DNA of 32,000 nt from Moraxella nasovis. Its GTDB lineage: Bacteria; Pseudomonadota; Gammaproteobacteria; Pseudomonadales; Moraxellaceae. Where the stretch lies: contig NZ_CP089976.1 in the NCBI RefSeq assembly GCF_022701215.1, forward strand, positions 480,001 to 512,000, read 5' to 3'. Positions 6,152 to 18,632 of the stretch are shown in pieces. How positions within the stretch are numbered: the first letter of the stretch is position 1; every line of letters starts with the position of its first letter. The notes below the pieces were generated by a model. The model was not told the DNA's origin and ran no database searches. It saw only the letters and a program-made list of their open reading frames with translations. A program made the translations under genes and the position numbers.

Positions 6152-6268
6152 GGTGCTGACGATGACCTACTCTCACATGGGCGAACCACACTACCATCGG
6201 CGCTAAGACGTTTCACTTCTGAGTTCGGGAAGGGATCAGGTGGTTCCATCTTGCTATTGTCGTCAGCG
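6152..6268 (-). rRNA. rrf: 5S ribosomal RNA
   Basis: The reverse complement aligns along its length with E. coli 5S (CCGAACUCAGAAGUGAAACG...GCGCCGAUGGUAGUGUGG...GAGAGUAGG). The terminal helix pairs 6154-6161 with 6261-6268. Confidence 0.9.
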
Positions 6269-6426
6269 TAAAAGGATTAACAACGATTATGAGTCTGTTT
6301 TTATTTAAATTTAATTTATTAAATTGATTTAATCTTTATTAAATTTACTTCAAGATATATTCTTTATCAAGCTTGTTAGGTAAAATCTTTACACTTTAAT
6401 CATACAAAACCACTTGGGTGTTGTAT

Positions 6427-9290
<2,864 letters not shown>

Positions 9291-9556
9291 ATACAACCCC
9301 AAGTAGTTTTACTTACTTGTGATGTATGAGAATGATTGTAACGATTTACCTATGTTTACGCTTGATTCAGTTCTCTTTACTTTTAGGTGATTATATTGGG
9401 TATAATCACCATGGTTAATTATTTGTTGGAATAAATAATTAACCCAGACTCATAATATGTTGTTAAATAATGATATAAACTTCGTCAGTTTATAAAGTTA
9501 AAGCATAAATAAGAAATCTTATTTAAATTGCTTATGTATGCTTATTGATGTTTTAA

Positions 9557-9632
9557 TGGTGGAGTTAAGGAGAGTCGAACTCCTGACCTCCTGCGTGCAA
9601 GGCAGGCGCTCTACCAACTGAGCTATAACCCC
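9557..9632 (-). tRNA. tRNA-Ala (anticodon TGC), in the rrn spacer
   Basis: The reverse complement is GGGGTTATAGCTCAGTTGGTAGAGCGCCTGCCTTGCACGCAGGAGGTCAGGAGTTCGACTCTCCTTAACTCCACCA. It folds as a cloverleaf, has the G3:U70 identity pair and an encoded CCA. Confidence 0.95.
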
Positions 9633-9641
9633 ATGTGTTAA

Positions 9642-9718
9642 TGGTGGGTCTAATAAGACTTGAACTTATGACCCCCGCGTTATCAACACGGTGCTCTAAC
9701 CAACTGAGCTATAGACCC
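9642..9718 (-). tRNA. tRNA-Ile (anticodon GAT), in the rrn spacer
   Basis: The reverse complement is GGGTCTATAGCTCAGTTGGTTAGAGCACCGTGTTGATAACGCGGGGGTCATAAGTTCAAGTCTTATTAGACCCACCA. Confidence 0.95.
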
Positions 9719-9780
9719 GTTTTAAAACATCTTTCCAAAGAACAACTTGTTGTGAATTCTTGCCAATCAGATAATATCGT

Positions 9781-11312
<1,532 letters not shown>

Positions 11313-11493: not shown

Positions 11494-11567
11494 AAATCCA
11501 CACAAGTTGTTCTTTGTTTGATTTTAAATAGTGTATGATACATCGTCTGTATCAATTAAGGCTGTAC

Positions 11568-11595
11568 ATTATATATTGAAAAGTTATAATGTCAA
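11568..11595 (-). promoter_or_regulatory. rrn promoter, near-consensus sigma70
   Basis: The minus strand reads aaaaaaagcTTGACA-16 nt-TATAATgtacagcc. An A-tract lies upstream in the position of an UP element. Confidence 0.6.
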
Positions 11596-11685
11596 GCTTT
11601 TTTTAAGTTGTTTTTTCACTGTATCAAGTTGGCTACGATTGCTATTTGTAATCGTTGGTAACTGCCTTGACTTTGTGAGTGGCGT

Positions 11686-11713
11686 ATTATACGCTTTTAA
11701 TATTTGATGTCAA
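11686..11713 (-). promoter_or_regulatory. rrn promoter, near-consensus sigma70 with GC-rich discriminator
   Basis: The minus strand reads gaaaaaaagcTTGACA-16 nt-TATAATacgccactc. The 16-bp spacer and the discriminator resemble E. coli rrnB P1 (TATAATGCGCCACCACT, from memory). Confidence 0.65.
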
Positions 11714-11808
11714 GCTTTTTTTCAAGAATTTTGGAAGTTTGTTTAAAACTAACTAAGTTATTGAAATTTAACAAGTTTTTTAGAACTTGAACTGCTTGAG
11801 TGGTGCGT

Positions 11809-11836
11809 ATTATACCTAAGATTTGATGTGGGTCAA
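11809..11836 (-). promoter_or_regulatory. rrn promoter, near-consensus sigma70 with GC-rich discriminator (most distal)
   Basis: The minus strand reads caaaaaaccccTTGACC-16 nt-TATAATacgcaccactc. Confidence 0.6.
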
Positions 11837-12142
11837 GGGGTTTTTTGAAGAAAGTTAGGAAAAGTTTGTAAGTGATTGTTTTTGTGGGGATTTTTTTTGA
11901 TATTTTTGTTGTATCTTTTATGCCATTCATGTATTATTTCGTGTATTATTGATTTGGTTGCGATTTGATTGTTATACCTGATCAGAAATTTATCCATTTA
12001 ATTATTCAATTTAATAGCCATTTGAGCGGTGCAAATACCGCCATCATCAATACCATCATCGCCAAAGAAGGAATTGTCCAATGTAATTATCGTCATCAAA
12101 CTAATCAAGCTAATTTTTATTTTAGTTGAACAAGGATTATGT

Positions 12143-13384
12143 ATGAGACGATTTATATTGGGTAATCGTGCTTTTTTGACGAGCCTATTTTTTGTTGTGA
12201 TGATGCAACTGTTGGTTGCTTTTTCTACTTATTGTATCAGCAAACTTGCCCAAAGCGTGGCTCATGGCAGCCTAAACGTGGGCTACTTATTTGGATTTGT
12301 CGGCAGTTTGGTGGGGGTATTTATCCCTGCTTATCTTGGTAGTATTTATTTTGAGCGGGCAACTTTTGACGCTCTACTACGCTACCATGATGATTTTGAA
12401 CGACATTTTCTAGGCAAAGCCTGCCACTATCATGATGGCAACCTTACACAAAATGCCAAAGCCCTATTATCCCAAGAAGCCAAGCTGACCCTTGATGATA
12501 CGCTACTGACCATTTATGATTTGACATCACTTATCTTTAATGTCGGTTTCAATCTATTTGTGATTGCGTGGGTGATTGATGGGCGAATTTTGTGGGGTTA
12601 TGCGGTGGGCTTTGTTTTGGCGTTGGGGGTGGTTTGGCTCTTTAAAAACCGCCTAAGCACAAGTGCCACTGTCGCCCAAAACACTCGCCTGTCGGTGCTG
12701 TCCGCCCTATCCTATGCGTGGGATAATATCATCATATTCAACACCTACAATCACACTCGCCACCGCCACAAAGTCAATGACAGCCTAGCTGCCGCCAAAC
12801 GTGCGGTCGTGCGTGCCAAGCTGATTCATCATGTCAGTGCCAATCTTGGTATGCTATCTTTGATGTCGTCTGCACTGGGCGTTACGGCGTGGCTGTTTTG
12901 GCAACACCACCACAATATCGCCATGCTTGCTGTATTGGTCGCCACCTTGCCACGTCAAATTCAAATGCTACAAATGTGCGAAGCCATCATCGCTTATCAG
13001 GCTAATCTGATGGCACTATCGGCAAGGGTTGATGGGCTGTTGGGTATTTTTAAGACACCCAAAATCTCGCTTGCTAATTTCATACAAAGCGATAAAATTT
13101 TGGTCAAGCAGACAGGGCGAGTATTTGATTTGACAAAACTTTTGGACAATCCGCCACGCACAGGGCGTATTACGCTCGTTGGCGATAATGGCGTGGGCAA
13201 GTCCTGTGTGCTTTTGACCATCAAAGAGCGGTTGTATGCCAAGTCCTATTACCTGCCTGCCAAGCACGAGCTGTGTTTTGATAATAATTTTGGCTCAACA
13301 GGGCAACGACTCATGAGTGAGATTGACGAGCTGACACATGATGATACGCCATACTTTTGCTTGATGAATGGGACGCTAATCTAG
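12143..13384 (+). CDS. ABC exporter-like membrane protein with a miniature, possibly frameshifted ATPase domain
   Basis: The likely start is the ATG at 12143 (MRRFILGN), preceded by AGGA. The track ORF starts at a GTG at 12029. About six hydrophobic helices are followed by Walker A (GDNGVGKS) and a signature-like GSTGQR. The Walker B motif (ILLLDEWDANLD) is only readable in the -1 frame from 13351, and that frame ends at 13437. Confidence 0.6.
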   Translation: MRRFILGNRAFLTSLFFVVMMQLLVAFSTYCISKLAQSVAHGSLNVGYLFGFVGSLVGVFIPAYLGSIYFERATFDALLRYHDDFERHFLGKACHYHDGNLTQNAKALLSQEAKLTLDDTLLTIYDLTSLIFNVGFNLFVIAWVIDGRILWGYAVGFVLALGVVWLFKNRLSTSATVAQNTRLSVLSALSYAWDNIIIFNTYNHTRHRHKVNDSLAAAKRAVVRAKLIHHVSANLGMLSLMSSALGVTAWLFWQHHHNIAMLAVLVATLPRQIQMLQMCEAIIAYQANLMALSARVDGLLGIFKTPKISLANFIQSDKILVKQTGRVFDLTKLLDNPPRTGRITLVGDNGVGKSCVLLTIKERLYAKSYYLPAKHELCFDNNFGSTGQRLMSEIDELTHDDTPYFCLMNGTLI

Positions 13385-13706: not shown

Positions 13707-14567
13707 TCATGAAGTGGTACTTGGTGTGGGTTTTGTTGACTGGTATTTTTGTTTTGATTTGGCGAACAAAACCGCCAACACGAACGCTGCCGCTTGCAAT
13801 AGCACAATGGTCGCCCCTGTCGCTGAATCTAAATGATAACTTAAAATCACGCCCATAAAACTTGTTAAACACGAACTTAACACCGCCACAACCAACATGG
13901 TATGAAACCGCCGACACAGCACAAATGCCGTAATGCCAGGCGAGATGAGCATTGCCACCACCAAAATCACGCCAACGGCTTGCATGGCAACAACAATGGT
14001 CGCCGACAACAGCACAAGCAGTCCATAATGCAAAAACTTTGGCGACAGCCCTGCCACTCGGGTGTGGCTGACATCAAAACAATAAAGTAGCAGGTCTGAT
14101 TTTTTGAGCATCATCGCCACAAACACCACCGCACAAATGGCAAGCGTCTGATACAGCATATCTTGTCCGATACCCAAAAGATTGCCAAATAAAATGTGCT
14201 TTAAGTGCTGGTCGGTATCAATCTTGGTGAACATAATCAGTCCGAGTGCAAACATACCTGCAAAGACAATGCCCATGAGCGTGTCTTCTTTGATGCGAGT
14301 GTTGCTTTTTAGATAGCCCACCGACACCGCACAAAACAGCCCTGCCACGAACGCCCCGAGCGATATGGGTAGACCTGCCCACACCGCCACGACCACCCCC
14401 GGGAACACCGCATGGCTTATCGCATCGCCCATCAACGACCAGCCTTTTAGCACCACAAAACACGACAGCACCGCACACACCACACCCACTGCCATCGCCG
14501 AAATCAAGGCGTGTTGCATGAAAGTGTGGGATAGGGGTTCGGCTAGGTAGGATAAGAGGTTAGTCAT
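13707..14567 (-). CDS. yfeD: metal (Fe/Mn) ABC importer permease, ABC-3 family, second permease
   Basis: The true start is probably the ATG at 14567 (MTNLLSYLAEPLSHTFMQHAL), with AGGTGG 9 nt upstream. The 50 extra N-terminal codons of the track ORF overlap the neighbouring ORF. The protein has multiple TM helices and the motif KGWSLMGDAISHAVFPGVV shared with its paralog yfeC. Confidence 0.85.
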   Translation of the reverse strand: MTNLLSYLAEPLSHTFMQHALISAMAVGVVCAVLSCFVVLKGWSLMGDAISHAVFPGVVVAVWAGLPISLGAFVAGLFCAVSVGYLKSNTRIKEDTLMGIVFAGMFALGLIMFTKIDTDQHLKHILFGNLLGIGQDMLYQTLAICAVVFVAMMLKKSDLLLYCFDVSHTRVAGLSPKFLHYGLLVLLSATIVVAMQAVGVILVVAMLISPGITAFVLCRRFHTMLVVAVLSSCLTSFMGVILSYHLDSATGATIVLLQAAAFVLAVLFAKSKQKYQSTKPTPSTTS

Positions 14568-14583
14568 CGTTTGTAACCACCTG

Positions 14584-15216
14584 TCAAAAACTGGGTCCGT
14601 CCATATCACATGAACGGTTAGGTGTATGATCTTTTTGTATTTTTTGGGACAAGTCCAAGTTTTTTTCCAATTTAAACTCTTGTATGGCTTCAAATAATGA
14701 TGCAACCACACCTTCATTATTTACGACCAGCATATTATCCAACTCATGGATAATACCACCTGCCGAACCCTCTTTCTTACCTTTTAGTTTTTCCTCAATA
14801 ACAACTTCTAAGTATTGTTTAAAATCCTGATATGAAATTGCAGAATCAAATAACCTTTTTTTATCTACAGAGTAAAACCTATCCTTCAAATTATTATTTA
14901 AAAAATCACAATAATTTGTCATCAATAGAACAAAACTTTGATTGTTATTAGCCCCATAAATTATAAAATGACAAGATGATGATTGGGAACTACTTAAAGT
15001 ATTAATAGAATGTTGAAAATCAGTATACTTCTTCTGTTCACTTTGGATACATGCTAGTTCGGATGTTCGTTTAAACTCTACCAAAAAAAATTTATCGTCT
15101 TCACCAAAAATAACATCGCCCATTTTTTCTAAATTGCCGTCCAAAGGAGTGGCAATAAAGTCAAATTGACGCACAAAAGCATATTCCACTGACTTTTCAA
15201 ACCATTTTATATTCAT
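14584..15216 (-). CDS. hypothetical protein, AT-rich insert in the yfe operon; PD-(D/E)xK-like motif
   Basis: 210-aa ORF with GGAG 9 nt upstream of its ATG. It has no TM segment and no signal peptide. The N-terminal third reads E10...P24-L-D26...FFLVE47-F-K49. G+C spot counts are 20-28% here versus 55% in yfeC. Confidence 0.7.
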   Translation of the reverse strand: MNIKWFEKSVEYAFVRQFDFIATPLDGNLEKMGDVIFGEDDKFFLVEFKRTSELACIQSEQKKYTDFQHSINTLSSSQSSSCHFIIYGANNNQSFVLLMTNYCDFLNNNLKDRFYSVDKKRLFDSAISYQDFKQYLEVVIEEKLKGKKEGSAGGIIHELDNMLVVNNEGVVASLFEAIQEFKLEKNLDLSQKIQKDHTPNRSCDMDGPSF

Positions 15217-15261
15217 AACAATTCTCCACTAAAAAACAAGTATATTTAATCACAAATCATG

Positions 15262-16137
15262 CTATCTTGTTAGTTGATTTTTTGCAAATCTTTGCGTCAT
15301 CACCCCAAACTTCGGCGAAAACAAAAACGCCAATACAAATAAAGCAGTCTGCAAAGCGACAATCACCCCACCTGTCGCACCGTCCAGATAATAGCTCAAA
15401 TACGCCCCAACACCCCCTGTCAGCACCCCAAAGGCAATCGCCATCAGCACCAACGGACGAAAACGGTCGGTCAGCTGAAAAGCGGTCGCCCCCGGGGTAA
15501 TCACCATCGCAATCACCAAAATCGCCCCCACCGTCTGCAAGGCTGCCACCACGCACGCTGACAACAAGCTAAAAAACAGCACCTGATACACCTTGGGCGA
15601 CAACCCTACTGCACGAGCTTGAATTTCATCAAAAAAAACCAACAACAAGTCTTTCCAAAAAATAAGCAAAAAAAGCAAACACACGCCCATGACAATCGCC
15701 ACTTGCACCATGTCGGTGTCGCTAATGCCCAAAATATTGCCAAAAATAATCTCTTGCACATTGACGGCGGTTGGATTGACCGAAATGATAAACAGCCCCA
15801 AAGCAAAAAAGGTGGTAAAAATAAAGCCAATGACCGCATCTTCTTTTAGATTAGTCAATGCCTTAATCCACAAAATAGATAATGCCGCCAAAATCCCTGA
15901 AAAAAACGCCGCCACCGCATAAGGCAAGCCAAAGGCATAAGCAATCGCCACCCCCGGTACGACCGCATGAGATAACGCATCGCCAATGAGCGACCAGCCT
16001 TTTAGCATCAAATACGCCGACAAAAACGCACACACCCCACCCACCAACGCACTGAGTGCCACAGCTTTTAGCATATATTCATAAGCAAAAGGCTCTAATA
16101 ATAGCGTAACTATCTGTGTCATGGCTATCTGTGTCAT
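15262..16137 (-). CDS. yfeC: metal (Fe/Mn) ABC importer permease, ABC-3 family, first permease
   Basis: 291-aa polytopic ORF containing [19 protein letters not shown]. Its ATG at 16137 overlaps the stop of the ATPase gene (ATGA). A duplicated ATG at 16122 is an alternative start. Confidence 0.88.
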
Positions 16138-17198
16138 GGCGTATCCTTTGATGGCGAGTGGCTGGCTGTGGTGGCTGATTGTGTCTGTGATGGATAAGTA
16201 CTGCCACTTTTTGGGTCAAAAATTTGTACTCCGCCACCGCCTGCTTGACCACAGCCACTGACATCTTTAAAGGCATTGATATTGATTTGTGCCAAACGGC
16301 TGTGTTTTTCTTCGGTGTAGTCATTGCTTTTGGTTGTGCCATCTTGCACGCCATAAAACACCGCAGGCACTTCATCGTCCGCCAAAATCGTTACCGAACG
16401 GCGGTCATCATCATCATGCAAATCCCTACCGCCCAAGCGAATTTGTCTTAGCACACCGCCAAAGACTTTTTCTAGATTGGTCTGGGTAAAAGTGTCAGCC
16501 GTACTGCCTGCCGCCAATACCGTGCGGTTAATCATCACCACTTGGTCGCAAAATTCAGGAATCGTGCCTAAGTTGTGCGTAGAAATCAAAATCAAATGCC
16601 CTTCGCTACGCAAGTCATCAAGCAGTGCCATGATTGCTTTTTCGGTTTTGACATCAACGCCGGTAAACGGCTCATCAAGCAAGATGATTTTGCTTTCTTG
16701 TGCCAACGCCCTTGCCAAAAATACTCGCTTTTTTTGACCACCTGACAGCTCGCTGATTTGACGGTCTTGTAGGTGGCTGATGTCCACACGAGCCATCGCA
16801 TCTGCTACTTTTTGTTTGTCTATGGCTTTGGGTATTCGCAAAAAATTCATGTAGCCATAACGCCCCATCATTACCACATCAAATACCGACACAGGAAACT
16901 GCCAATCCACTTCTTCGCTTTGGGGGACATAGGCAACCAGATTTTGTTTAAGTGCGATATTGATGGGCATATCACATAGGCGGATTTGTCCAGATTGCGG
17001 ACACACAAGCCCCATGATGGATTTAAATAACGTGGATTTGCCAGAGCCATTGACCCCCACCAAGGCACAGGTCGTCCCCCCAGTCAAACAAAAAGTCATG
17101 TCGTACAACGCATGATGACCATTGGCATAGCGGACGTTCACGCCTGCTACGTCTATTTTGGCGATGGGTTTTGTGGTGGCATGTGGTAATTTTTGCAT
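16134..17198 (-). CDS. yfeB: metal ABC importer ATP-binding protein with a C-terminal extension of about 100 aa
   Basis: Walker [11 protein letters not shown]-loop YVPQ, signature LSGGQKKR, Walker [12 protein letters not shown] and H-loop STHNL are all present. The length is 354 aa. Confidence 0.9.
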
Positions 17199-17487
17199 GG
17201 TCGCATCGTTAGTTTGTTAATTTAAAAAACATAAAAACGCCAAGATGAAGATTTTGTGTTTTTTAAATCAATATCTTATTTCACCAATGTCTTGTTTTTC
17301 ATATCTTATTTATAACGAACATCAAATAAGCAAAGACCCTCATGATGATTGAATTATTATAAAGGATTGATGTTTGATGAACAATTTAAAAAACAAAAGA
17401 CTTGGTTATCCTAAAAATATTTAAAAAATTAAGCAGTGTCTTTTTTTAAGATTGATGTATGTTGGCATGACAAAATTTGATAAAAAT

Positions 17488-17519
17488 GACAATCAGCCAT
17501 ACACCGATTGCTGATTGTC
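17488..17519 (-). terminator. intra-operon hairpin/terminator downstream of yfeA
   Basis: Perfect 10-bp arms gacaatcagc / gctgattgtc with a 12-nt loop. On the minus strand it is followed by AUUUUUAUCAAAUUUU. It lies 32 nt after the yfeA stop. Confidence 0.5.
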
Positions 17520-17550
17520 CTAGTACACTTTTAATTACTTTTTCTTGTCA

Positions 17551-18504
17551 TTACTTTTTCTTAGCATCTTCAAATCCCTTGACCACCGTAGAGACGGTAA
17601 CATTGAGCAGGTCAAGATAAGTTGGTACTGCCCCATTTGGCTCAGACAAGCTATCTACATACAAGACACCGCCATAATAAGCCCCACTTTCTTTGGCAAC
17701 TTGACGGGCAGGCTTATCAGAGATGGTGCTTTCGCTAAATAGCACAGGGATTTTGTTGGTACGCACAGTATCAATCAACGCTTTGACCTGCTTGGGTGAG
17801 CCTTGTTGTTCGGCATTGATGGGCCATAAATATGCTTCTTTTAGACCATAATCTTTCGCCAAATAACTAAACGCCCCTTCACTACTGACAAGCCACCGCT
17901 CATTTTGGGGAATTTGTTCTAATTTGGCACGCAAGGGTGCGTCAAGCTCTTTGATTTTTTGGCGATAAGCTTCGGCATTTTTGATATACACGTCTTTATG
18001 CTCAGGGTCATATTTTATCAAAGCATTTTTGATATTCTCTACATAAATCAACGCATTAGATGGCGACATCCACGCGTGCGGATTGGGCATATCTTTATAC
18101 GACCCTTCTTTGATGGGCAGGGGTGTGATGCCTTCTGTAACCACCACAGCAGGCACATTTTTAACACCTTGGTAGAATTTTTCAAACCACCGCTCCAAAT
18201 TTAGTCCATTATACAAAATCAAATCCGCCTGATTGACTTTGGCGATGTCTTGGGGTGTTGGTTCATATTCATGAATCTCAGCACCTGCTTTGGTGATGGA
18301 CTGCACATCGGCAGCATCGCCTGCCACATTTTGGGCGATGTCTTGAATGACGGTAAAGGTCGTCAGTACGGTAAATTTGTGGTCTGCTTGAACGGCAGGC
18401 TCTTGTTTGGCGGTGTCTGCGGTGTGTTCAGTGGGCTGGTTACAGCCTGTCAATGCCAACACAAACGCAAAACACGCCCCTAATGTTTTTAATGATTTCA
18501 TCAT
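17551..18504 (-). CDS. yfeA: metal (Fe/Mn) ABC importer substrate-binding lipoprotein, cluster A-I (YfeA/SitA/PsaA-like)
   Basis: The probable start is MMKSLKTLGACFAFVLALTGC (lipobox LTGC), with GGGAGGG abutting the tandem ATGs at 18504 and 18501. Conserved blocks include EIHEYEPTP, NGLNLERWF, PNPHAWMSP, SSEGAFSYLA, LWPINAEQQGSPKQV and SESTISDKPARQVA. Confidence 0.9.
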   Translation of the reverse strand: MMKSLKTLGACFAFVLALTGCNQPTEHTADTAKQEPAVQADHKFTVLTTFTVIQDIAQNVAGDAADVQSITKAGAEIHEYEPTPQDIAKVNQADLILYNGLNLERWFEKFYQGVKNVPAVVVTEGITPLPIKEGSYKDMPNPHAWMSPSNALIYVENIKNALIKYDPEHKDVYIKNAEAYRQKIKELDAPLRAKLEQIPQNERWLVSSEGAFSYLAKDYGLKEAYLWPINAEQQGSPKQVKALIDTVRTNKIPVLFSESTISDKPARQVAKESGAYYGGVLYVDSLSEPNGAVPTYLDLLNVTVSTVVKGFEDAKKK

Positions 18505-18613
18505 CCCTCCCAACAACCAAATAAAATGAACACTTATGATAAACTGCCCAAAAAATAGCACTATTTATATTTGAACGGCATTTATGAACGACACATATCT
18601 TAGCTGATATTTT

Positions 18614-18632
18614 GATAATGATATTTATTATC
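18614..18632. promoter_or_regulatory. Fur box
   Basis: GATAATGATATTTATTATC matches the 19-bp Fur consensus GATAATGATAATCATTATC at 17 of 19 positions. It overlaps the -10 and spacer of the yfe promoter. Confidence 0.7.

Follow-up and report, generated by a model that had tools for sequence, protein, structure and literature searches.

In the chromosome of Moraxella nasovis, a gene of foreign base composition sits between the two permease genes of the yfe operon, which encodes an Fe/Mn transporter. The window in which we analysed it is a stretch of 32,000 nucleotides of contig NZ_CP089976.1 (positions 480,001 to 512,000), and all coordinates given here without a locus name are positions in that window. 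The gene is an open reading frame (ORF) of 210 aa with an ATG start and a TGA stop (14584-15216, minus strand), and its product is 100% identical to the M. nasovis hypothetical protein LU293_02450. On balance, we favour the reading that this ORF is a horizontally acquired, stand-alone, mobile defence-type nuclease gene of an uncharacterised family, co-transcribed with yfe; comparative genomics and a structural model make this reading somewhat probable. Relatives of the ORF are spread over prophages, plasmids and anti-phage defence islands, so that it is most likely an acquired passenger of the defence type and not a part of the transporter.

The two permease genes, yfeC (291 aa, 15262-16137, minus strand) and yfeD (286 aa, 13707-14567, minus strand), are both intact, as are yfeA and yfeB upstream of yfeC, and all four are co-oriented with the ORF. 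The ORF alone fills the 694-bp gap between the permease genes (14568-15261), leaving spacers, on the same strand, of 45 nt towards yfeC (15217-15261) and 16 nt towards yfeD (14568-14583). A first-pass annotation of this stretch, made by a model from the sequence alone, had described this arrangement correctly, with a gap of about 690 bp filled by one 210-aa ORF, and had stated that the permease genes are adjacent in yfe/sit operons of the Yersinia/Haemophilus type. The comparison agrees: in a set of 80 yfeC loci, each taken from a different species of Moraxella, Pasteurellaceae, Neisseriaceae such as Eikenella and Kingella, or their relatives, the permease genes lie -4 to about +70 bp apart in about 70 loci. 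M. nasovis YfeC and YfeD are 80-84% and 75-82% identical, respectively, to the orthologues of other Moraxella. By tblastn, a homologue of the ORF is found at 0 of the 80 related yfe loci, and an ancestral operon member, an alternative that the annotation had itself raised, is rejected on this ground. The short yfeC-yfeD spacers of other Moraxella have no sequence in common with the M. nasovis junction. A renewed search, in agreement with what the annotation had reported, found no recombinase near the insertion, and a look for repeats, direct or inverted, on either side of 14568-15261 turned up nothing beyond short AT-rich matches attributable to chance, with no target-site duplication or terminal inverted repeat.

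The base composition of the ORF sets it apart from its neighbours. Its G+C content is 31.4%, and its G+C at third codon positions (GC3) is 0.26, against 47.0% in yfeC and 49.6% in yfeD (GC3 0.53-0.57) and 42.4% in the whole window. The abrupt change that the annotation had illustrated with spot counts was reproduced exactly on recomputation, with G+C fractions of 0.20 at 14881-14940 and 0.283 at 14941-15000, as opposed to 0.55 at 15361-15420 in yfeC. The ORF is no chance open frame: the observed frame of 214 codons was never equalled in 2000 shuffles of the 694-bp gap, where the longest frame averaged 64 codons and reached a maximum of 184. Homologues elsewhere share the low G+C content: at 63 of 69 other loci the gene is poorer in G+C than the DNA on either side, and at 24 of these the deficit is 10 points or more. 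Taken together, the lack of a homologue in 80 relatives, the foreign composition and the AT-richness of the family's other members suggest, with high confidence on our part, a single-gene, horizontal and lineage-specific insertion, as the annotation had proposed.

The same joint holds different DNA in other species. M. lacunata CCUG 4441 (L012:5850-7838), M. nonliquefaciens (L013:5850-7799) and M. bovis (L014:5840-7773) carry at yfeC-yfeD a different insert of about 1.9 kb, with 32% G+C against about 44% for the flanking genes. In M. nonliquefaciens and M. lacunata CCUG 4441 its opposite strand encodes a Sel1-repeat protein and a secreted-looking one of 153 aa, and an XRE-type helix-turn-helix gene is co-oriented and lies just upstream of yfeD; the M. 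bovis insert has only the XRE-like gene in common with the other two, and M. lacunata NCTC10359 is without such an insert. In Moraxella sp. VT-16-12 (L009:5856-10849), yfeC is followed by hslR-like, phosphatase and murB-like genes with no yfeD within 5 kb, and the second permease gene of this strain is missing or relocated. The yfeA-yfeB spacer varies in length as well: it is 3.1 kb in M. oculi (L031) and between -36 and 471 bp elsewhere in Moraxella. The intergenic joints of yfe, yfeC-yfeD and yfeA-yfeB alike, thus take up foreign AT-rich DNA recurrently in Moraxella, and joints that repeatedly accept foreign DNA argue for opportunistic acquisition and against site-specific homing. It is plausible that a whole insert-bearing allele can be exchanged by homologous recombination in these naturally competent bacteria. 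Two further observations concern the operon as a whole: GC3 of the yfe genes (0.45-0.57) is above that of most other genes in the window (0.25-0.43, with one at 0.48), and M. nasovis YfeC is 71-77% identical to Pasteurellaceae and Neisseriaceae orthologues. Judging from such comparisons, the entire yfe operon may have been exchanged among respiratory-tract bacteria.

The annotation had called the ORF an orphan, and in this it was mistaken. A direct scan of the ORF protein retrieved 0 families from Pfam, PADLOC, NCBIfam and PHROGs, tblastn against a phage record collection gave no match, and a word-index search returned one relative only, at 45% identity. At E<=1e-3 an exhaustive HMMER search recovered 272 representative clusters, 89 of which pass E<=1e-10 and nearly all of which measure 185-230 aa, and a profile built from 88 relatives recovered 594 clusters at E<=1e-5, giving a family of at least that size. 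No cluster contains a Pfam domain, and those that carry a name at all are called "hypothetical". Among the hosts identified by name are Acinetobacter baumannii, Yersinia, Aeromonas, Chromobacterium, Halomonas, Kushneria, Pseudoalteromonas, Teredinibacter and Herminiimonas, and tblastn located plasmid copies in Vibrio, Providencia, Pantoea, Enterobacter, Cupriavidus and Trichlorobacter. The closest relatives of the M. nasovis protein (P0003-P0007, 42-55% identity) are confined to contigs of 1-3 kb, which offer little context; one of them, P0003, comes after a gluconokinase-like gene, not after yfe.

Alignments of 88 and 115 sequences reveal 17 invariant columns (W5, E7, K8, V10, E11, Y12, F14, P24, E30, D34, E47, F48, K49, E60, K63, H83 and Y135 in the numbering of the M. 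nasovis protein), and all 17 residues are kept in M. nasovis. The M. nasovis subclade has residues of its own at several columns that are otherwise nearly invariant: relative to the family consensus, examples are D78 replaced by Q, H80 by S, and TYFS by NYCD. The protein has no hydrophobic segment (maximum Kyte-Doolittle 19-residue mean 0.84), which agrees with its earlier description as soluble-looking and free of transmembrane segments. Its last codons, 186-210 (14587-14661, minus strand), form a tail that is predicted to be disordered, with a predicted local distance difference test score (pLDDT) below 50, ending in DMDGPSF. Many members (A1/A2) likewise end, past a disordered linker, in a G-P-S-[M/F/L]-like motif, as in YSGPSMGM, RSGPSMGR and YDGPSL, and [GSA]P occurs within the last 8 residues of 102 of 192 members. 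This tail could be a docking peptide or a degron.

The first-pass annotation had read a PD-(D/E)xK nuclease core into the N-terminal third of the protein, and most of that reading stands. AlphaFold (AF2), supplied with a 115-sequence alignment, returned a model with a pLDDT of 80 and a predicted template modelling (TM) score of 0.74; a run on the single sequence gave a pLDDT of 37. The predicted core occupies codons 1-105 (14902-15216, minus strand; pLDDT 81-95) and consists of helix 7-17, strand 21-24, helix 27-32, strands 35-39 and 42-49, helices 54-82, and strands 83-90 and 95-101, which is the alpha-beta-beta-beta-alpha-beta topology of the PD-(D/E)xK superfamily core. The model places the invariant residues where the superfamily's D...(D/E)-x-K signature and helix-1 glutamate are expected: E7 and E11 on helix 1, D34 where strand 2 begins and E47-x-K49 where strand 3 ends. 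Beyond the core, codons 106-185 (14662-14901, minus strand) make up a family-specific C-terminal region that is helical in the model and includes the invariant Y135, a Gly-rich linker (KGKKEGSAGG), and a terminal small beta-hairpin and helix.

Searches with the model and with the family point in the same direction. Foldseek against the PDB ranked the Hjc resolvases 2eo0, 4tkk and 1hh1 first, followed by D212 nuclease, a cap-snatching endonuclease, VRR_NUC, a tRNA-splicing endonuclease, BsaXI and HincII; against viral models (BFVD) it returned RecU, VRR-NUC, DUF4365 and Cas4 with probabilities of up to 0.96. Almost all of the named top matches in the two collections are PD-(D/E)xK proteins. When each of 115 family sequences was scanned against Pfam, PADLOC and NCBIfam, sub-threshold matches recurred and were concentrated on PD-(D/E)xK families: VRR_NUC (6), SduA_C (3), HSDR_N (3) and ERCC4 (1) in Pfam; Cas4_II (8, best E 0.0014), CARF_PDDEXK and REase_II, scattered and weak, in PADLOC; and RecB-like (14) and cap-snatching (2) in NCBIfam. 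The sole segment that hhalign aligned with Pyrococcus furiosus Hjc (Hjc sequence verified as 1gef) pairs G33-D34...E47-F-K49 with V32-D33...E46-V-K48, with a D-to-E spacing of 13 in both proteins. We take D33, E46 and K48, together with E9, to be the catalytic residues of P. furiosus Hjc. The corresponding hhalign comparison with the N-terminal nuclease domain of HsdR from locus L001 yielded noise only.

On these grounds the ORF protein in all likelihood has a PD-(D/E)xK-type nuclease fold, and its conserved residues suggest metal-dependent cleavage activity. The active site of the earlier annotation requires two corrections. P24-L-D26 and E47-F-K49 are indeed present as it described them, whereas its E10 is not, residue 10 being a valine flanked by the glutamates E7 and E11. 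Furthermore, D26 is only about 90% conserved, with S or A in its place in several members, and the catalytic aspartate is more likely D34 (codon 15115-15117, minus strand), because D34 is invariant, begins strand 2, precedes E47 by 13 residues and aligns with Hjc D33. We thus propose D34 for the 'PD' position, and the codons of E47-F48-K49 (15070-15078, minus strand), all of them invariant, for the (D/E)xK motif.

To place the family in its genomic surroundings, we pooled loci from exact-protein look-ups, plasmid records, 15 viral contigs and 80 metagenome contigs, 91 of which are distinct at 90% identity. An all-against-all comparison of 331 neighbour proteins from these 91 loci revealed no conserved partner gene. 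The largest family of shared neighbours has 4 members, all from one syntenic lineage of integrative and conjugative elements (ICEs), and since no neighbour family recurs, the gene appears to be self-contained and solitary. What does recur, in raw counts taken without a control for background frequency, is the presence of defence and mobile-element genes in a neighbourhood that is otherwise variable. The Pfam domains of 144 immediate neighbours include TIR_2 (5), TraI_2, Phage_integrase, ResIII and ParE_toxin (3 each) and SLOG (2), as well as AAA_15/21, AEP-TOTE and CAP12-TIR.

Several of these defence settings are specific. On two related contigs (L001 and L107), a homologue lies between hsdS, which it overlaps by 4 nt, and hsdR of a type I restriction-modification (R-M) system; the embedded proteins are the 45-50% identical homologues P0002 and P0004. 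Time and again, genes found inside type I R-M clusters have turned out to serve defence (PMC11411939; bioRxiv 10.1101/2024.01.29.577857). An Aeromonas island holds a family member together with TIR_2, DUF3800, Vsr, EcoRII, Dcm (C5 methylase) and Fic genes. One homologue lies directly 3' of a pPIWI-RE module and another after a DUF4145 gene. At L131:142-3731 a homologue stands between genes for a 372-aa TIR_2 protein (23-nt overlap) and a 620-aa TIR-SLOG (STALD-like) protein; a related TIR-SLOG gene follows the homologue at L172, and a TIR_2 gene precedes the one at L089. SIR2, HTH-Mrr-STAND, TOTE and GajA/PtuA-like genes are also found near homologues. We also considered a TIR protein as a dedicated partner and rejected it: there are five TIR_2 neighbours, but only two of them (that of L089 itself and that of L131) are related to the L089 TIR protein.

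Other settings are those of mobile elements. In an A. baumannii prophage, a homologue occupies the int-proximal end. In P2-like prophages, homologues fill the orf30 slot between gpS and gpV (L091 and L111) and the Z/fun slot between tail-fibre and FI genes (L119), in each case as AT-rich single genes with a G+C content 18-27 points below that of their surroundings. P2-like phages have three classical moron regions, and these slots are two of them (PMC6823313, PMC3091744). At L111:6721-6906, short duplicated pieces of the end of gpS and the start of gpV come after the homologue, and one more ORF lies beyond them, an arrangement that may be a trace of cassette-like recombination at the junction. 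IncC plasmids also carry homologues, one of them in a co-oriented array with "restriction endonuclease" and DUF4365 genes, and ICE copies adjoin TraI_2 relaxase genes. This pattern favours one of the identities that the first-pass annotation had listed, a solitary defence nuclease. We put the chance of a defence role for the family, as judged from genomic context, at close to even.

Several sequence signals bear on the expression of the ORF. A GGAG Shine-Dalgarno sequence (15224-15227) lies 7 nt 5' of its ATG, as the annotation had observed, and yfeD is served by a GGTGG Shine-Dalgarno-like sequence (14577-14581) in the 16-nt spacer directly after the ORF stop. No terminator-like or promoter-like site was scored in either junction, yfeC-ORF or ORF-yfeD. 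With a Shine-Dalgarno sequence of its own and no promoter or terminator recognised in the junctions, the ORF is most likely part of the yfe mRNA. The operon is preceded by a Fur-box match, GATAATGATATTTATTATC (18614-18632), with 2 mismatches to the 19-bp consensus; chance alone would give 0 such matches. The best promoter-like site upstream of yfeA runs from 18646 to 18618, and its -10 hexamer shares positions with the box, in keeping with the Fur control that the annotation had assigned to yfe. Co-transcription with this operon, and hence a response to Fur, is plausible for the ORF. A terminator-like hairpin (17511 to 17489, minus strand) lies about 40 nt past the yfeA stop in the AT-rich, 350-bp yfeA-yfeB spacer (17199-17550, minus strand; 25% G+C) and is possibly an attenuator; because of this hairpin, Fur control of the genes downstream of yfeA depends on read-through. 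The AT-rich ORF itself includes two promoter-like sites, at 14989 to 14960 and at 14922 to 14893, that could feed yfeD as well.

The favoured reading can be put as a sequence of steps. The protein would have an N-terminal PD-(D/E)xK domain of the Hjc/RecU/VRR-NUC kind with an active site composed of E11, D34 and E47-x-K49, possibly assisted by E7, E60, K63 and H83. The family travels as an AT-rich moron, a cargo of one gene, with prophages, ICEs, plasmids and chromosomal defence islands, and one copy has settled in the yfeC-yfeD spacer of M. nasovis with the flanking genes undamaged. Its product would be a metal-dependent DNA endonuclease that acts alone and shields its carrier from phages or other invading DNA. 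Lacking an immunity or modification partner, such a nuclease would have to discriminate intrinsically, recognising the structure or the modification of DNA much as solitary nucleases of the type IV-like or Shedu-like kind do. The location within a metal-uptake operon is unusual and probably incidental. A more elaborate version, which we regard as speculative and would not expect to hold in full, has the G-P-S-[M/F/L] tail of a single-gene immune nuclease with an Hjc-like site dock the nuclease to a host or phage factor or release it from one, and so provide the self/non-self control, while capture by a Fur-regulated operon leads to induction in the iron-limited host niche.

A number of results weigh against the favoured reading. 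The Foldseek matches are statistically weak (E about 0.01-0.1, TM 0.2-0.45), and with such E-values and low TM-scores they amount to a consistent indication of the fold, not to proof; the hhalign probability against P. furiosus Hjc is 0.9%, and the family profile had 0 matches at E<=10 against PDB sequences. No known defence-system model (PADLOC v2) matches the ORF protein, and the 115 members have only scattered weak matches among them. A partner-less nuclease needs some mechanism to distinguish self from non-self, and none is evident. Some neighbourhoods are ordinary chromosomal ones with carB, gluconokinase-like or MCP genes, the plasmid regions with antirestriction genes fit counter-defence or maintenance of the mobile genetic element equally well, and all neighbour counts are raw ones, as noted. 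Fur control of the ORF is not certain, given the yfeA hairpin and the promoter-like sites within the ORF. M. nasovis, finally, is represented by a single genome.

The mobile settings of the family could also be those of a counter-defence factor, or one for the establishment of mobile elements, that degrades a host immune signal or DNA intermediate or that resolves or repairs element DNA on entry, in which case the M. nasovis copy would be a stranded remnant. Such a factor would account for copies on conjugative plasmids and ICEs near relaxase genes (TraI_2 neighbours; a MobH region), for the antirestriction protein and DUF1380 gene near the homologue on a Pantoea plasmid and for the copies in prophage moron slots, and small Hjc/RecU-like resolvases are common among phage genes, as the BFVD matches illustrate. 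We consider it unlikely nonetheless, since an anti-restriction function fits poorly with embedding in a type I R-M operon where the stop of one gene overlaps the start of the next, chromosomal defence islands put the family beside TIR, EcoRII and pPIWI-RE genes, and neither the phage record collection nor PHROGs held a match. Another of the identities listed in the first-pass annotation, a free-standing homing-type endonuclease, would have cut a naive yfeC-yfeD junction and been copied in by repair. PD-(D/E)xK homing endonucleases exist, and precise, co-oriented single-gene insertions between intact operon genes are found in three settings (yfe, hsdS/hsdR and P2 gpS/gpV), in the case at hand without a transposase, terminal inverted repeat or target-site duplication; the short duplicated gpS/gpV fragments beside the L111 copy can be counted on the same side. 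Homing is hard to reconcile, however, with 0 of 80 related yfe loci carrying the gene and with neighbours that are unrelated across 91 loci and present no recurrent target site. Many copies, moreover, are intergenic or in islands instead of between conserved paralogous target genes, and the unrelated inserts that other Moraxella hold at yfeC-yfeD suggest a permissive site, not a specific target. We therefore think homing improbable.

Two further explanations concern the function of the protein in M. nasovis. The PD-(D/E)xK fold has known non-catalytic members, and the ORF might encode a protein that is not a nuclease in vivo (for example, a DNA-binding regulator) or might be an expressed but neutral remnant, to which the deviations of the M. 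nasovis subclade at nearly invariant columns would lend some colour. We see little prospect of this, because every invariant residue is kept, including each of the proposed catalytic ones, and because the frame is intact in DNA of 31% G+C in which chance frames average 64 codons. That the ORF is a true accessory part of the Yfe Fe/Mn transporter, or of metal homeostasis, is suggested by its position and orientation inside the operon and by nothing else. The 80 related yfe operons are without a homologue, the base composition is foreign, homologues never have yfe neighbours in the 91 loci, and a soluble nuclease fold is predicted, which leaves an accessory role with a probability close to nil. 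The reading of an acquired, defence-type passenger nuclease is the one that we carry forward.

The rest of the locus calls for brief description. Upstream of yfeC lie yfeB, which encodes the ATPase (354 aa, 16134-17198, minus strand) and whose stop shares 4 nt with the yfeC start, and yfeA, which encodes the substrate-binding lipoprotein (17551-18561, minus strand). The listed yfeA ORF opens at GTG; its true start is likely an internal one (MMKSL...) with an LTGC lipobox. YfeB carries a low-complexity C-terminal extension over its last ~50 codons (16134-16290) that can be aligned in several other Moraxella, whereas for M. catarrhalis and two further Moraxella loci the alignment breaks off at residue 283-287. 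The ORF-free stretch of the window is explained by a complete rRNA operon (16S, tRNA-Ile, tRNA-Ala, 23S and 5S; 6154-11312, minus strand), and between this operon and a 451-aa ABC-type gene (12029-13384) there is a segment of about 29% G+C (11500-12100) with only short ORFs. At Rfam gathering thresholds no RNA element was found in the yfeC-yfeD gap, and the only matches in the window were the rRNA operon and its tRNAs.

If the ORF family does consist of defence nucleases, it represents a compact single-gene system of about 200 aa that current defence catalogues and domain libraries do not recognise, with members in Acinetobacter baumannii, Yersinia, Aeromonas and Vibrio, on IncC plasmids and in P2-like prophages. 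Being small, encoded by a single gene and widely distributed, the family lends itself readily to cloning and phage challenge. The M. nasovis copy further illustrates that mobile cargo can enter a housekeeping or virulence-related operon without breaking it and may inherit the operon's regulation, and the recurrent AT-rich landing sites at yfeC-yfeD and yfeA-yfeB matter for annotating the metal-uptake loci of Moraxella or using them as markers. If the ORF is only a passenger, this is an ordinary moron insertion. In either case it is a good and cheap candidate for defence screening, not a conceptual surprise.

By its profile matches the protein does not qualify as Hjc, as Shedu or as part of any PADLOC system, and we therefore describe the family as a previously undescribed one within a known superfamily, PD-(D/E)xK, and a known ecological class, the cargo of mobile elements and defence islands. 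Its best fold-search matches, Hjc, RecU and VRR-NUC, have in common with the ORF protein a helix with a glutamate, three strands and a helix, and the spacing E11...D34...E47-x-K49 is nearly identical to E9...D33...E46-x-K48 of P. furiosus Hjc. These proteins nevertheless have no significant sequence or profile similarity to the family, and their TM-scores are low; the Pfam Hjc profile matched neither the ORF protein nor any of the 115 members. The ORF family has an extra stretch of about 100 aa at the C-terminus, with a conserved motif in the tail, and, unlike archaeal Hjc, is bacterial and mobilome-borne.

In terms of context, the morons of P2 (the orf30, Z/fun, tin and old slots) offer one parallel, as homologues fill the orf30 and Z/fun slots as AT-rich single genes and Z/fun of P2 is listed as a phage-exclusion gene (PMC3091744). 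The likeness is one of slot, and the M. nasovis copy, in contrast, sits in a chromosomal metal-uptake operon. The closest contextual analogue is provided by defence genes embedded in type I R-M clusters, such as TgvAB of V. cholerae VPI-2 and the PADLOC 'guilt-by-embedding' candidates. Embedded genes like these have been shown to act as anti-phage systems (PMC11411939; bioRxiv 10.1101/2024.01.29.577857); the ORF family is unrelated to GmrSD/TgvAB, consists of one gene instead of two and is without a PADLOC model match. Shedu (SduA, DUF4263) is likewise a solitary, partner-less PD-(D/E)xK nuclease of defence islands, and 3 of the 115 family members have sub-threshold matches to SduA_C (best E 0.0018, short of the Pfam gathering threshold). 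Compared with Shedu, the ORF protein is about half the size, has its predicted nuclease domain at the N-terminus and is without the regulatory N-terminal domain.

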